Shown piece after piece: positions 10,372 to 18,248 of a stretch of DNA of 20,000 nt. Positions within the stretch are counted from its first letter, which is position 1. Every line of letters begins with the position of its first letter. The position numbers were made by a program, and so were the translations under genes. The DNA comes from an uncultured virus (IMG/VR IMGVR_UViG_3300035521_000126) (lineage: Duplodnaviria > Heunggongvirae > Uroviricota > Caudoviricetes), in the IMG/VR virus record IMGVR_UViG_3300035521_000126, positions 52,105 to 72,104 of that record; one strand, given 5' to 3'. The notes under the pieces are model-generated. The model ran no database searches. It was not told where the DNA came from and was given only the letters and a program-made list of their open reading frames with translations.

Positions 10372-10458
10372 TGGTACGGCAGCTCGGAATCGAACCGAGA
10401 AAGGTGTAAACCATGACAGTTTAGAAGACTGTTCCTGTGTCCATTGAGGCACTACCGC
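10372..10458 (-). tRNA. tRNA with anticodon TCT (Arg) and an atypical long variable arm
   Basis: Acceptor GCGGTAG/CTGCCGT + A + CCA, D stem CCT/AGG, anticodon arm ACAGT-CTTCTAA-ACTGT, 16-nt variable region with a GGT/ACC stem, T arm CTCGG-TTCGATT-CCGAG. Confidence 0.85.
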
Positions 10459-10548
10459 ATATAAAAGTGGACGAAACCTTTTAACTCGTCCATTAATAAT
10501 AGTTTTAGAGGATGCACACCCAACATAATCTATTAGAATGTACACAAT

Positions 10549-10665
10549 TGGCACTTGGGGTTGGATTTGAACCAACAGTCTACGCCTTGATAATGGAAGA
10601 CTTTCTTGCTGTTACCGCCTAATAGACAGCATTTTCGTCGCTTTAACCAATTAAGCTACCCAAGT
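10549..10665 (-). ncRNA. 117-nt tRNA mimic whose anticodon arm is replaced by a structured insert (Y-RNA/YrlA-like candidate)
   Basis: Perfect acceptor ACTTGGG/CCCAAGT + G + CCA, canonical D arm TAGCTTAATTGGTTAAAGC and T arm GTTGG-TTCAAAT-CCAAC. The anticodon stem is reduced to ACG/CGT and encloses AAAA-TGCTGTCT-ATT-AGGCGGTA-ACAGCAA-GAAAGTCTTCCATTATCAAGG. Confidence 0.85.
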
Positions 10666-10674
10666 ATAATATTT

Positions 10675-10730
10675 AGACGCTATTTTCGTTTGAAACCAAA
10701 AACAAACCAAAATAATTGCTGTAAGCGTCT
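10675..10730 (-). ncRNA. Stand-alone stem-ACAGCAA RNA element
   Basis: AGACGCT-T-ACAGCAA-(U-rich region with GTTTG/CAAAC hairpin)-GAAAAT-AGCGTCT. The termini form a perfect 7-bp stem. Confidence 0.65.
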
Positions 10731-10932: not shown

Positions 10933-10961
10933 ATTATAGCACAAAATTTTAATTTTGTCAA
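10933..10961 (-). promoter_or_regulatory. sigma70/sigmaA consensus promoter for the ncRNA/tRNA operon
   Basis: TTGACA-AAATTAAAATTTTGTGC-TATAAT (17-nt spacer, TG extension), with AT-rich upstream DNA. Confidence 0.9.
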
Positions 10962-10990: not shown

Positions 10991-11461
10991 TTAATCTTCC
11001 TGATGCCGAGGTTTTAAAACCATGATTTTATGAGTTTCAAAATACCTGTTAAACTCGTCTCCATTACATAAAGTCATGACCTCAGATAGCTTATCCTTCG
11101 TCGCTTTAAAAGCCTCTTCAGGTGTAAAAAATTCACTAACTGCATTTTCATTTTCATCTATATTACGAAGCATGAAATAAACAGGAGAACATTCCTCATT
11201 AAAATCACCGGTAATAGCACAAAACCAATTATTGCTTTCTTTCAAACGTTTAATTGAATATTCCAAATAACCGTCTTTATTAAAAATTGTTTCTTTTAAA
11301 ATTCTAAGAAACAATTTCAGAAGATTACTTGTCTTATCCTCAATTTCGCCATAATAACCCGGCCATAACGGTTGAAAATAAAAATTTCCAACTTCATCCA
11401 TAAGAACATCTACTTCAAGGTCTTCGTAACCGTCATAGCATAAATTTCCGATAATTTGCAC
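10991..11461 (-). CDS. Hypothetical protein
   Basis: 156-aa ORF with GTG start and RBS GAGGT. No motif recognised. Confidence 0.75.
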   Translation of the reverse strand: MQIIGNLCYDGYEDLEVDVLMDEVGNFYFQPLWPGYYGEIEDKTSNLLKLFLRILKETIFNKDGYLEYSIKRLKESNNWFCAITGDFNEECSPVYFMLRNIDENENAVSEFFTPEEAFKATKDKLSEVMTLCNGDEFNRYFETHKIMVLKPRHQED

Positions 11462-11496: not shown

Positions 11497-12612
11497 TTAT
11501 TCATAAATCATAAAGTCTTTCCCATAAATTGAATTGCACATATCAAATACGCGCCCCATACCCAAACCAGATTCACTAGGCATCCAAATTTGTTTTGGAT
11601 TCCAAATATCTTTATTGGTATTTAAAGAATCATATTGTGGGTTGTCTACCCATTGACCTCCATTAATACAATAATCATATTGTTTTGGGTGCGTCCAAGC
11701 CAATCTCTGAAAACGTGTTTCGCCCTTTTCAAGATGTAAACCATAAGCACAAAAAATACATCCTGTTCTAGTACAACCAGTGCATAAAAATTTTCCAGAT
11801 TTTTCGTCTTTTATGATTTCACCATAAACAGAACAAATTTGAAGCCCATATTTTACAATATATTCAAATATATCCTGTTCTGTCCAAAACGACAAAGGAT
11901 TACTGACTGGTTCTTTCATATAGAAACCGTTACAGCCATTTTTCAACCATTGCTGTCTTCTAAGCCATCCTTCTTCTGCCATTTGTCCAGTAATAGGAAA
12001 AACTTGTTGTTTGTGGGCATAATGTTTTACAGGACGTTTTTTCATAACCTTACAGCACTCGGAAGAAATATTAAATGGTAAATCATAAAGTGGTCTATAT
12101 TTTTGTATATTAAATACGCTATCAATTTCGCCATCATTTAAACGTCTCATAGACACAGAATAATTTCCATGAGACATACTAACACGAGCATCTTTAATAG
12201 CTCCCGACACCTCTTTTGAAATAATCGGATAGCCATAAATAGAAACAACATCTTTAAATGATAAATTATCTATATTAGAATGACCGTTTCGCTTTCCGGC
12301 ATTTCCCCACTTTGGGTTTAATACAATTACTCCATCAAAAGACTGTGCAAATTTTTGAATTTCTGGATATTCCAGTCCAGTATTTACAAAAACCACTGGG
12401 ATATTTTTATCTGGCAATGTTCGGCGTACAATATCAAGAAGAACTGTACTATCTTTGCCACCACTAAAACTTACATATATTCTTCCTTTAAAATGATTAT
12501 ACCACTCTAAGATACGCGTCTGACTAATTTGAACTTTGCGCTCCAATGGTAGCGCTTGTAATTCTTTAAGACGAGTGGAATCATGAATACTTGTGTCTCT
12601 ATAGTCGCTCAT
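11497..12612 (-). CDS. PAPS-reductase/DndC-family PP-loop protein with Fe-S cysteines
   Basis: YVSFSGGKDSTVL, NTGLEYPE, ECCKVMKKRP, PLSFWTEQDI and RTGCIFC. Confidence 0.88.
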   Translation of the reverse strand: MSDYRDTSIHDSTRLKELQALPLERKVQISQTRILEWYNHFKGRIYVSFSGGKDSTVLLDIVRRTLPDKNIPVVFVNTGLEYPEIQKFAQSFDGVIVLNPKWGNAGKRNGHSNIDNLSFKDVVSIYGYPIISKEVSGAIKDARVSMSHGNYSVSMRRLNDGEIDSVFNIQKYRPLYDLPFNISSECCKVMKKRPVKHYAHKQQVFPITGQMAEEGWLRRQQWLKNGCNGFYMKEPVSNPLSFWTEQDIFEYIVKYGLQICSVYGEIIKDEKSGKFLCTGCTRTGCIFCAYGLHLEKGETRFQRLAWTHPKQYDYCINGGQWVDNPQYDSLNTNKDIWNPKQIWMPSESGLGMGRVFDMCNSIYGKDFMIYE

Positions 12613-13302: not shown

Positions 13303-14760
13303 TTATGCCGTAATCATTGCATAACGCTCGTCACTCAGAGCCTTAATCATCGCCTCATAGCTATCATATCCGATAGATTCAAGAACATTCTTGAAAATCG
13401 CAGTAGACATACCAGAGAACTGACGAACTCCTTCTTGCTTTGCTCTTGCCTGAAAATTACCATAGCTATTTACGTTCCAGAACACAACTTCCGGCAAAGT
13501 ATAGCCATAAGTATTATACTTCTGCTTAATCTGGTCGTAGAACGTTAAACATCCCTTACGGAAACCAGTAACGCAATAATCCATCTGCATATCAGTAATA
13601 ACTACGATAGTCTTAGGCAAGTCCTCACTAGCTATGTTATTTTTGATTGCAGTCTTCAACACAAGCTCAAATGCCGCCTCAAGATTTGTATTATTACCCC
13701 AAGGAGCGCTTCTGACCTTATTAATCTTACTCCGCAGAGTACCTTCACGAAGTTCAATGAACTTAGGCCGCTCAGAGAAAGTCATAAACAGGTTGTGCCA
13801 ATCTCCCTTATTGCGCTCGGCAAAATAAATTGCCAAACCAATAGCAGCGTCCATAGGACGGCCATACATAGAACCAGAAGTATCTGCCATTACAAGAATA
13901 TTATTCTCGCCCTCGACATAGTTAGGCAGAGCTTTCCACTGCGCCTCTAAAACATCATCTTCCGCATAACTATTCTCGTATCTTTCAATGATGTCATAAG
14001 GGAACAACGTGGAAGCATTAATCTTCTTAGCGCCAGACTTCACAGCCTCCATGTACTTAGAAAAACCGATGTTGTCATGCTTAGAAAATGCCTTGGCGTA
14101 ATTCTTCATTGCATAAGAGGGAACAGCTTCGTAATTAATCTTAGACCACTCACGACCAGACATTTTAACTTCCGTAACATCAATGTACTTACGGAGTTTT
14201 GCAATAGTCTTCTGATAGGTGCGTGCGTCCATTCCCAGCTTCTTTGCGGTCAAATAACCAAGACGTACAGACTCCTTGGAACTGGTATTGACAGACTTGA
14301 CCCACTTAGCAGCCAGAGAAACAGACTTGCCAGCATTCATAGCCGCAATATCCTCAGAAATCTGCTCAACCAAAATCTGCCACATATCATTTTCAACGGG
14401 CGTTCCGATGAAAACATACATATCATCCCAACGACCGAAGAAAGGAACGTACTTCAAGTTCTTACGCATGACATCGGTATGGTTCGTAGCCAGCCAATGC
14501 CACATCTGACGAGCAGTCTCACGCTCACCCTGACCACCACGAGCATCACGACAATAGAACGTAATCTTCGTCGTTAAATCAGGACTTTCGTTAAAGGCCG
14601 CATAAAGCAAACTGGTCAAATCACTACGGTTCTCACGCATAGCGCCACACTGGGCAAACAAGTCAAGAACCGAACTACCAGTGGTATTAATAGCCAAAGC
14701 ACCATTAGTCGTAAGAGTACGAGAAGCTTCAGTACGTGCAGCATCAGTAAAAACACTCAT
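13303..14760 (-). CDS. DUF2828-type protein with a helical N-terminal region and a C-terminal vWA domain (TROVE/Ro60-like architecture)
   Basis: N-terminal TTNGA...TTG...LDLF, RDARGGQGER, FGRWDD, SLAAKW, INYEAVPS and INASTLFPYDI. vWA MIDAS residues: ADTSGSM, NTNL, ITDMQMD, and VFWNV. Family recognised from memory of these motifs. Confidence 0.8.
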   Translation of the reverse strand: MSVFTDAARTEASRTLTTNGALAINTTGSSVLDLFAQCGAMRENRSDLTSLLYAAFNESPDLTTKITFYCRDARGGQGERETARQMWHWLATNHTDVMRKNLKYVPFFGRWDDMYVFIGTPVENDMWQILVEQISEDIAAMNAGKSVSLAAKWVKSVNTSSKESVRLGYLTAKKLGMDARTYQKTIAKLRKYIDVTEVKMSGREWSKINYEAVPSYAMKNYAKAFSKHDNIGFSKYMEAVKSGAKKINASTLFPYDIIERYENSYAEDDVLEAQWKALPNYVEGENNILVMADTSGSMYGRPMDAAIGLAIYFAERNKGDWHNLFMTFSERPKFIELREGTLRSKINKVRSAPWGNNTNLEAAFELVLKTAIKNNIASEDLPKTIVVITDMQMDYCVTGFRKGCLTFYDQIKQKYNTYGYTLPEVVFWNVNSYGNFQARAKQEGVRQFSGMSTAIFKNVLESIGYDSYEAMIKALSDERYAMITA

Positions 14761-14851: not shown

Positions 14852-16030
14852 TCAAGAATTTTCTTTTAGAATTTTTACAGTATCCACTAAAGCACCTATC
14901 AACGTGGAAATATTTTCAGTGGTAGTATTTTCATCGAAAGAAATTCTAATAGAAGAAGTGGGTATACTTATATCTTTCAAGGAATCATTTGACATTACAA
15001 TATTTGACAAAACATGACTTGCGCTCCCAGCTTCACAAGCAGAACCAGTGGAAACCTTTATGTCGTAAAGTTCATCCAAAGCAAGCATTAAAGATTCTGC
15101 ATGAACTCCATGAAACGCAATGTTAATAATACTACTAACACAATCATGTGAGGGAGAATTTACTCGGAAAGCATCTTTCCCAAGTCCATCTTCCAACCCT
15201 CTAATAATTGCTTTTTTAAAGTCATTATATTTAACGTCTATTTCATCAAAATTTACACAACGTAAATCATTAACGGCAGCGTTAAGGCCAGCAATACCAA
15301 GAATATTCTCTGTGCCACCACGTATTCCATCTTCTTGCTTGCCACCATAAATAAGAGTTGGTAGATGATAATATCTTTCATACTTCATTCCATCAGAAAT
15401 CCAGACAACACCAATTCCTTTAGGGGCATGAAATTTATGACCTGAAAATGTAGCAATATCAACTCCTAATTCCTGCATATTAATTTTCATATGAGGAAGA
15501 GCTTGGGTAATATCCGTATGGAAAATATACCCATGTGCATGAGCCATACTTGCCAACTTTTTAATGTCCTGAATCGTACCAATCTCATTATTTGCCATTA
15601 TGATTGATACCATTTTAACATACCATTCACTATCTTCTCCCCAGCTAAGAAATTGGTCGTACATATCAGGGTCTATAAAACCATATTCGTCTGTCTGTAA
15701 AATATTATAATTATAATCAAAATCTCTCTTATTTCCGTCAACACTCATAATAGAACTATGTTCGATTCCGCTTATAATTATTTTATCAACACTCTTATTG
15801 ATAACCCAAGTATTTGCTTCACTACCACTTGAGGTGAAATAAATTTTTCCGCCTCCACCATTCAACAGCAAATCAATATTTGTTTTAGTATCTTCAATAT
15901 ATTGCTTTACTTCCAGACCTTCTTTATATAAATTGCTAGGATTACAATTCAAACAATCCATAGCACGGTCAATTTCTTTTTTTACATTAGGACTTATAAA
16001 AGTCGTAGATGCTGAATCTAAATAAATCAA
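14852..16030 (-). CDS. iscS: Cysteine desulfurase (IscS/NifS family, PLP-dependent)
   Basis: IYLDSASTT, NPS, FTSSGSEAN, ANNEIGTIQ, HTD, SGHKFHAPKG (PLP lysine), RGGTEN and VSTGSAC (catalytic Cys). TTG start. Confidence 0.92.
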   Translation of the reverse strand: MIYLDSASTTFISPNVKKEIDRAMDCLNCNPSNLYKEGLEVKQYIEDTKTNIDLLLNGGGGKIYFTSSGSEANTWVINKSVDKIIISGIEHSSIMSVDGNKRDFDYNYNILQTDEYGFIDPDMYDQFLSWGEDSEWYVKMVSIIMANNEIGTIQDIKKLASMAHAHGYIFHTDITQALPHMKINMQELGVDIATFSGHKFHAPKGIGVVWISDGMKYERYYHLPTLIYGGKQEDGIRGGTENILGIAGLNAAVNDLRCVNFDEIDVKYNDFKKAIIRGLEDGLGKDAFRVNSPSHDCVSSIINIAFHGVHAESLMLALDELYDIKVSTGSACEAGSASHVLSNIVMSNDSLKDISIPTSSIRISFDENTTTENISTLIGALVDTVKILKENS

Positions 16031-17333: not shown

Positions 17334-18248
17334 TTAATGTGATTCAACATCACAATAATGCAAATTTTGTACCTCTTCGTAAAAATCTTTACCCCACTTT
17401 TTCTCATACTTAGAACACTGCCCATTATTCCAGCCATAAGGCTTCATGTGCTGATTTACTAAGAAAAGAACGTGAAGTAATCCCTCTAAACTCAAATCAG
17501 AAAATTTCATGAACATACCGTCATACGCACTAATATTTTCGTGATTATAATAATGAGCTTCCTCAGTCTTTACACCGTCTCTATTACAAAATACCTTAGT
17601 CTTAGCTTTCCCAATATCATGAATCAATGCCGCATATCTCACATACTTGGAAAAATTATTCTTTTCTGCAATCTTATACGCCATTTTCATGTGTGAACCT
17701 AAAGACAAGGTATGATGGTGATTGTCCTGATTAAAGTCAGTCAAAGAATTTACAACTTCAACAGGGTCATAAGTTTCAAATTCAAGACCATTAACGAAAT
17801 TAATACTATCCCATCCCTCATTCCAATAAGGAATGTTAAAATTTTTGTACATACGATAAATTACATAATCAGGGACATCCTTTGACCGCATATGAGAACG
17901 GGCAATGCAATCATTGTACGAAGTGCGCATAATCATGCAGCTTGCATGAATCTTTCCGATACGCTTTTCAAGTCCTTTAACTCTTTGTAAGAGAGCTGTC
18001 CGATACCGAGAAGAAACATTACAAGCATCAAAGATTACGCTATTGCCACATTCAAGATTGACTTTAATACGTCTCTCTACTTCCTTAAAGACTTCCGAAT
18101 TATGGTCTTGATTTCCTTCGTCTCCATAAAATTCCTCACGAATTGCATCAGAAGAAATTACCACAAATCCTTCTTTTCTCCGCAAATTACAATAAGTAGA
18201 CTTGCCACTTGCAGGAAGTCCACACATCACAATAAACTGCAAAACCAT
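17334..18248 (-). CDS. Polynucleotide kinase (AAA_33) + HD phosphohydrolase fusion
   Basis: MCGLPASGKST, SSDAIR and FDACN, followed by HH...H, HDIGK, HYYNHE, HM and a terminal D (HD domain). Confidence 0.88.
   Translation of the reverse strand: MVLQFIVMCGLPASGKSTYCNLRRKEGFVVISSDAIREEFYGDEGNQDHNSEVFKEVERRIKVNLECGNSVIFDACNVSSRYRTALLQRVKGLEKRIGKIHASCMIMRTSYNDCIARSHMRSKDVPDYVIYRMYKNFNIPYWNEGWDSINFVNGLEFETYDPVEVVNSLTDFNQDNHHHTLSLGSHMKMAYKIAEKNNFSKYVRYAALIHDIGKAKTKVFCNRDGVKTEEAHYYNHENISAYDGMFMKFSDLSLEGLLHVLFLVNQHMKPYGWNNGQCSKYEKKWGKDFYEEVQNLHYCDVESH

Follow-up and report, generated by a model that had tools for sequence, protein, structure and literature searches.

The stretch of DNA analysed here (20,000 nucleotides, referred to below as the window) is the final 20 kb of a 72-kb virus record that is 68% complete. 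Profile matches among its minus-strand genes comprise phage replication, NifS-type, PAPS-reductase-type, PhoH, kinase-HD and DUF2828/DUF7788 proteins, and the open reading frames at 10991 and 10317 flank a small-RNA cluster made up of a promoter, a 56-nt free stem with ACAGCAA, the tRNA-shaped element that is the subject of this study and a tRNA-Arg. A BLAST search of the region against cultured phages returned tRNA-Arg fragments only. The features discussed below are as follows.

13303 to 14760, minus strand: DUF2828/DUF7788 (vWA) protein, 485 aa, a predicted Ro60-like ring and likely partner of the element (profile, AlphaFold model, co-occurrence)
10933 to 10961, minus strand: putative sigma70-type promoter, perfect consensus with an extended -10, upstream of the small-RNA cluster (consensus match)
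10675 to 10730, minus strand: free handle RNA, 56 nt, a 7-bp terminal stem around ACAGCAA and an inner hairpin (folding)
10549 to 10665, minus strand: 117-nt tRNA-shaped RNA gene with the handle in the anticodon stem and an encoded CCA (sequence, Rfam tRNA model)
10659 to 10665, minus strand: 5' strand of the acceptor stem, pairing with 10553-10559; discriminator G at 10552, CCA at 10549-10551 (sequence, folding)
10640 to 10656, minus strand: D arm (Rfam model, family alignment)
10636 to 10638, minus strand: top of the anticodon stem (positions 27-29), pairing with 10582-10584 (family register; disfavoured by ViennaRNA)
10613 to 10631, minus strand: 8-bp handle hairpin; tail and head of a free handle RNA meet in its loop (shuffles, alignment, folding, related contig)
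10606 to 10612, minus strand: single-stranded ACAGCAA motif, predicted protein-binding site (family conservation)
10585 to 10596, minus strand: 2-bp CC/GG stem closing an 8-nt loop with a displaced anticodon-like UU-AUC-AA (ViennaRNA, family)
10560 to 10581, minus strand: 5-nt variable loop and T arm (Rfam model, folding)
10372 to 10458, minus strand: tRNA-Arg(UCU), downstream of the element in the same cluster (tRNA callers)

In the tRNA-Arg(UCU), the variable region is unusually long (~18 nt) and the D stem is weak, and two strong hairpins (14 and 8 bp, within 10459-10545), both without ACAGCAA, separate it from the element. The DUF2828 gene is flanked by the PAPS-reductase-type and NifS-type genes (11497-12612 and 14852-16030), a pair reminiscent of DndC and DndA that may point to the modification of DNA or RNA with sulfur. 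At 17334-18248, an AAA_33 kinase fused to an HD domain forms a polynucleotide kinase/phosphatase-like end-healing enzyme, and a LAGLIDADG endonuclease gene (1957-2919) is flanked by primase-helicase and DNA polymerase III alpha genes. Reading TAG as sense lifts coding coverage across most of the structural-gene half of record G000 (G000:C1 1-32000; e.g., from 0.62 to 0.78), a gain that would fit late genes in which TAG is recoded. The tRNA calls for the 72-kb record include no suppressor, and no phage CCA-adding enzyme was found in records G000 or G001.

The first-pass annotation, made from the letters of the window, had described a CCA-ending tRNA mimic in which a ~50-nt insert replaced the anticodon arm. 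Its account of the body was borne out, with an acceptor stem of 7/7 Watson-Crick pairs, U8-A9, a D arm with GG, a 5-nt variable loop, a canonical T loop and the CCA all intact. The Rfam tRNA model scored the element at 50.3 bits with 51 bases unmodelled, the discriminator is G73 (minus strand), and the bases for the tertiary contacts A15:U48, G26/A44 and U12-A23-A9 are present. Also as proposed, the insert holds ACAGCAA and an 8-bp hairpin (including three G.U pairs), an equally good version of which arose in 0/100 shuffles of the insert; these two parts make up the insert module, or handle. In relatives, G.U pairs of the hairpin are replaced by G-C. The rest of the anticodon region had to be redrawn. 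At 39 nt, the insert proper lies between tRNA positions 29 and 30 and leaves a split anticodon stem and an 8-nt loop instead of the canonical 5-bp stem and 7-nt loop. Where no anticodon loop had been seen, positions 32-38 (counted back from the variable loop) read UU-AUC-AA and are the last seven bases of the 8-nt loop, which is closed by CC/GG with a ViennaRNA pair probability of 0.9. A proposed TCTT/AAGG hairpin gained no support, having a probability of 0.02 (ViennaRNA) and being disrupted in a related contig. The proposed ACG/CGU stem stood in part: ViennaRNA gave it a probability near zero, but a stem of at least 3 bp occurs at the top of the anticodon stem in exact register in 31/42 family members and in no more than 10 at slid registers, a feature outside the filter that defined membership. 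The folding energy of the element alone is weak (z -1.54; 12/200 shuffles equally good). An alternative pairing of the hairpin 5' strand with ACAGCA (probability 0.38) was rejected because both relatives break it, and a TGA-suppressor reading of the loop was rejected as well, TGA ending 5 of the 18 window genes.

In a set of 11 loci that encode DUF2828 relatives, ACAGCAA stems turn up repeatedly next to the DUF2828 gene and among tRNAs. Scanning for the pattern D-loop..ACAGCAA..T-loop..CCA gave 122 viral loci (62/64 parts scanned) and 89 GTDB loci. The 94 unique viral matches include 53 un-permuted tRNA bodies, 100-155 nt long; in 49, the enlarged body has a hairpin whose end lies 0-5 nt ahead of the motif. 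A control heptamer of the same composition gave 13 matches, none of them an un-permuted hairpin-bearing body (0/13). From GTDB, 11/88 were added, of which three Nitrosopumilus matches (L275, L328 and L341), archaeal intron tRNAs by eye, were then dropped, as were tandem-tRNA matches; the remaining eight lie on clostridial contigs and mostly resemble viral members. All scans combined gave 57 distinct viral member sequences, the window element included, and clustering at 0.9 similarity reduced the family to a non-redundant set of 42. A covariance model added eight members outside its training set (62 sources), namely three without an encoded CCA, three with motif variants and two nested forms. 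The selection of members favours hairpins: the pattern requires ACAGCAA, the T loop and CCA, the filter requires a hairpin, and of shuffled inserts 37% pass this filter and 6.7% reach the observed score; many members also come from related phages, and the counts therefore overstate independence.

Several carriers are cultured phages, in which the members are annotated as ordinary, intron-bearing or pseudo tRNAs: Serratia BF (tRNA-Pseudo), the Erwinia pEa_SNUABM phages (identical sequence, tRNA-Lys), Aeromonas PX29 (a two-piece tRNA-Leu), Aeh1 (a 122-nt tRNA-Val, 2.75 kb downstream of its DUF2828 gene) and LAh_6/8/9. A metagenome scan for close relatives produced one match, in the permuted form. 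Among the sequencing runs, none listed as containing the element is an RNA run, which has no bearing on its expression. The un-permuted class is undescribed in the mostly open-access literature that we searched; in the searched supplements of Chen 2014 (PMC4201824), neither the ACAGCAA motif nor the member phages were matched.

The first-pass annotation had argued that so clean a body spoke against decay and had called for an alignment of homologues; family, covariation and structure-preserving variants now agree with it. In an unfitted MAFFT alignment of 44 sequences (38 of the 42 members plus six added, four long or truncated ones being omitted), 93% of 965 cells are paired, compared with 43-46% when slid. 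The insert hairpin is conserved, pairing in 80-83% of cells, with double changes at 6/6 positions, and RNAalifold predicted five hairpin pairs unprompted from the family alignment. The Levitt pair, which like the anticodon-stem register lies outside the filter, is kept in 39/42 members (20 G:C, 19 A:U) against a shuffle mean of 19.5, and the acceptor stem is 7/7 in 41/42. A contig from run X4 (depth 5.3) that spans the element carries seven substitutions and one deletion: two of the changes turn a hairpin G.U into G-C, the others fall in loops and linkers, so that acceptor, D arm, split stem and CCA, as well as the loop and the motif, are unchanged. The DNA contigs showed no joints. In five Aeromonas orthologues (78-91% identity), the CCA is conserved and a hairpin pair is swapped between A-U and U-A; their discriminator alternates between G and U, motif position 3 varies and no anticodon-like loop is present. 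The comparison shows that selection holds the elbow, the acceptor stem and the CCA, but not amino-acid identity.

The handle also occurs outside tRNA bodies. Free handle RNAs mostly start with AG and end with CT(T/C/A)GT, and the loop of the embedded hairpin joins both signatures. The closest relative of the window (L001, 97%-complete) carries a free handle RNA 300 nt upstream, with whose 3' end its embedded hairpin has nine bases in common and with whose 5' start it has six. In this relative, the handle hairpin combines the 3' tail and the 5' head of a free handle RNA, joined end to end, which makes the element the un-permuted, CCA-ended counterpart of YrlA-type RNAs. Permuted forms, with the order handle, T arm, looped acceptor and D arm, account for 29/100 free sites at the same loci and carry the same handle; judged from their order of parts, the two layouts are circular permutations of each other, and tandem duplication or head-to-tail fusion could interconvert them. 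Two permuted RNAs (L005:12610-12730 and L487:1298-1410) have a CCA inside the acceptor loop and are candidates for opening by RNase P in the manner of Mycobacterium smegmatis YrlA. The embedded handle resembles the free handles of its own phage in 22/30 cases, a weak and non-independent signal. By eye and by tRNA identity rules, the tRNA bodies are Gly-, Pro-, Tyr-, Leu- and Glu-like, and the insertion points vary; as body origin and insertion point differ, repeated births are suggested. A nearest-neighbour assignment of isotypes was uninformative. In two members (L090:7856-7994, Leu-type; L207:1501-1629, Tyr-type), the 5' anticodon strand is duplicated on both sides of the handle, so that looping out the handle allows the whole anticodon arm to form. 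At 10730, the window is without 237 nt that are present in its closest relative (L001:11986-12222, a second free handle RNA and a tRNA-Ser GCU); this deletion runs between two handle starts, and handles therefore appear to act as recombination points.

A candidate partner for the handle is encoded 2.6 kb upstream of the element, on the same strand. We searched 50 of the ~80 member-bearing viral loci, choosing long contigs and adding one by eye, and found DUF2828 on 40 of them, including 17/17 records that are at least 90% complete. It occurs in 3/44 control tRNA-bearing contigs of at least 40 kb and in 1/23 near-complete ones; the controls include small temperate phages, and restricting the near-complete set to at least 80 kb gives 1/13. 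The AlphaFold model of the protein (pLDDT 91.5) found as its best match among 48,161 chains Ro60 with RNA (Z 21.0, rmsd 3.9, 411 residues aligned), followed by phage Ro60 (Z 14.5) and Rsr (12.0), with vWA-only matches at 10.1 or below, and the ESM Atlas agrees with this Ro60 fold. Its sequence identity to Ro60 is only 12-17%, a sequence search of the PDB with it returned no Ro60, and the window protein has no Pfam TROVE match; Pfam TROVE was found in 0/18 member records and 2/13 controls. The predicted fold is Ro60-like, and a shared fold shows no function. RNA ligases scored over the cut-off in 10/17 members versus 8/13 controls, which is no enrichment, with RtcB in 1/17.

The element is a complete tRNA body with a conserved handle, and we consider it probable that this RNA is neither spliced nor used for decoding and instead docks, as a partner, on the DUF2828 protein with its predicted Ro60 fold. 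The underlying mechanism could proceed as follows. First, the element would be transcribed from the promoter at 10961-10933 together with the free handle RNA and the tRNA-Arg, cut by host RNase P and trimmed at its 3' end to the encoded CCA, in the manner of engineered anticodon-arm tRNA scaffolds, which are processed in E. coli (PMC3753655). The intact body makes processing by RNase P, also proposed at first pass, plausible. Second, as the comparison of members shows, selection keeps the elbow, the acceptor stem and the CCA, but not amino-acid identity. Third, as seen in the closest relative, fusion of the free handle RNA's 3' tail to its 5' head gives the un-permuted YrlA-type counterpart. 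Finally, the DUF2828 ring may bind the handle and display an uncharged tRNA look-alike.

Given these steps, the most likely job, which we put forward tentatively, is to bait the host enzymes that, in anti-phage defence, target the ends, elbows or loops of tRNAs; a defence that cuts CCA ends has been described (PMC12851939). No host anticodon corresponds to the AUC loop, and in the Aeromonas members such a loop is absent, which weakens the case for bait aimed at anticodon-specific nucleases. Close behind, the RNA could possibly anchor the ring on a nuclease of the host, for example PNPase; phage Ro60 is reported to bind both Yrl RNAs and host PNPase (PMC12135203). The third job, as a platform for the repair or quality control of tRNAs, is also close behind, although it is the one that we expect least.

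The alternative that survives best, though we think it unlikely, takes the tRNA body as a mere device for processing and stability, a natural tRNA scaffold: it would release and protect a handle RNA whose task is to gate or titrate the DUF2828 ring, and its CCA end would play no outward part. Engineered scaffolds of the same design accumulate in E. coli (PMC3753655), cargo and discriminator vary freely in the family, and the L229 member has lost the entire 3' anticodon region. However, free handle RNAs are already present in the same phages, and the in-register loops keep R37 in 28/31 and A38 in 23/31, more than a bare scaffold needs.

Less probable still is an intron-containing tRNA gene, in which the handle is excised and the halves are ligated to give tRNA-Asp(AUC) or similar. 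The first-pass annotation expected gene finders to return an undetermined, pseudo or intron call; ARAGORN made no call at its default settings, and the intron call appeared under relaxed settings, as a tRNA-Asp(atc) with a 40-nt intron. The discriminator G73 fits the identity rule for Asp, and the PX29 member is annotated as a two-piece tRNA. When the cut points were left free, a 5-bp arm with U33 and R37 was attainable in 10/42 members (pyrimidine at 32) or 19/42 (any base at 32), against nulls of 5% (strict) and 13.5% (relaxed), and a variant allowing long variable arms and requiring a pyrimidine at 32 gave 5 pairs in 13/42. These arms are reachable above the null, and many members therefore keep a real anticodon arm or remnants of one. 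However, the cut points needed spread over 0-7 nt without a common splice site, and 11-20/42 members yield no arm. The best excision of the window element leaves 4 pairs and an A.G mismatch with the anticodon AUC, which is no canonical tRNA, and neither AUC nor AGG is found among 1,250 ordinary tRNAs from member loci. Orthologues that are 91% alike are annotated as different isotypes and are without a usable loop, the element has no group I intron match (39 nt being too short for one), and no RNA ligase reaches the cut-off in the 97%-complete relative. Splicing of the element is unlikely.

A working, unspliced tRNA is very improbable. In such a molecule the split stem would stack and the handle hang sideways, and the charged RNA would decode or donate amino acids outside the ribosome. 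A subgroup does combine a split stem with an in-register loop, and the Gly-type members keep U73 and GCC-AA, the Pro-type members NGG-GA. Against this, the window element has an 8-nt loop and AUC, U33 is present in only 15/31 in-register loops, and the triplet is uncoupled from the acceptor, one acceptor stem bearing UUC, GUC or GUU loops in different phages. This uncoupling and the discriminator that varies among orthologues also disfavour the specific aminoacylation that had been envisaged at first.

We give just as little credence to the idea that handle repeats and tRNA genes recombined in a plastic cluster and left the element behind as a by-product, which now drifts. The 237-nt deletion between handle starts, the likeness of embedded to same-phage free handles (22/30) and the varying insertion points would fit this idea, but covariation, in the compensated stems and the Levitt pair, largely refutes it, and the structure-preserving variants and the orthologues retained at 78-91% identity also speak against it.

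The reading that we prefer, a CCA-ended partner RNA docked on a Ro60-fold protein, bears on an existing problem, as the role of the tRNA-like module in bacterial Y RNAs is presented as an open question in the discussion of PMC4201824. Because the element has a true CCA end, culturable carriers (Aeh1, PX29, Serratia BF, LAh_8), a defined handle and a candidate protein, its binding, charging, splicing and anti-defence activity are directly testable. The un-permuted class explains some mis-annotated phage tRNAs and is a natural version of the engineered tRNA scaffold. If the decoy reading is true, genome records would conceal an unrecognised anti-defence ribonucleoprotein under the label of pseudo or intron tRNA, and a common mechanism would follow for DUF2828 and possibly for amoebal Class I RNAs. 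In its furthest form, this reading has phages from Firmicutes to Gammaproteobacteria repeatedly remaking real tRNA genes as CCA-ended decoys that dock on a Ro ring. Fusion would place a mobile handle in the anticodon stem, and the displayed loop would be exchanged to suit the tRNA-targeting defences of the host. We regard this generalization as doubtful.

Several known systems resemble parts of the element. The T4 rnaC and rnaD RNAs (species 1 and 2) are likewise stable non-coding RNAs in a phage tRNA cluster, and rnaC has a T arm, but by eye neither has a hairpin-ACAGCAA handle inside a tRNA body. The Dictyostelid Class I RNAs, compared by their description (PMC7919456), have a short stem beside an unpaired 11-nt motif whose invariant T3, C6, C9, A10 and A11 fit the element, although T3 is present in only 24/42 family members, and their reported start AAG and end CUGU resemble the head and tail of the handle. 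At ~60 nt, with a 5'-3' terminal stem and no tRNA body in that description, they resemble the free neighbour at 10675-10730 rather than the element, which gave no Rfam match to a Class I-like family. In the engineered tRNA scaffold, as reported in PMC3753655, the acceptor, D and T arms are likewise kept and the anticodon stem-loop is the insertion site, including for a protein-binding hairpin; that scaffold is synthetic, whereas the phage element is natural and conserved, and its family often keeps a displaced anticodon loop. Thermus phage phiLo (PMC12135203) also encodes a Ro ring (the structural match at Z 14.5) with adjacent small RNAs, but for its Yrl1 and Yrl2 the available text describes a CGAA motif and 5'-3' stem closure and no CCA-ended tRNA body.

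The closest comparison is with YrlA (RF02553; PMC4201824), with which the element has in common the tRNA-like D and T arms and their tertiary contacts. The differences are in layout and sequence. In YrlA the T arm precedes the D arm and the acceptor is loop-closed, whereas the element runs from D to T with open ends and a CCA, and it is the handle that is closed by a loop; M. smegmatis YrlA is reported to gain a CCA end only once RNase P cuts it into two pieces (PMC4201824). The YrlA motif GNCGAAN0-1G near the 5' end has no match in the element, where the motif is ACAGCAA; a GNCGAA core in the element overlaps the anticodon stem and is changed in the related contig. Against a YrlA model threshold of 69 bits, the element gave no match at E <= 10 and the permuted relatives reached only 31-35 bits. 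YrlA lies within 4 kb of a Ro60 orthologue on the same strand, the element 2.6 kb from a DUF2828 gene with a predicted Ro60 fold and no Pfam TROVE match. Since the element fails three of the defining features of YrlA, we do not file it as a member. The analogy with YrlA drawn at first pass has nevertheless become stronger than proposed, the insert being a conserved handle that is common to free and permuted small RNAs and that co-occurs with a Ro60-fold protein. By this analogy, the element could work like a YrlA-type Y RNA, and its co-occurrence with DUF2828 makes that protein a candidate for binding it.
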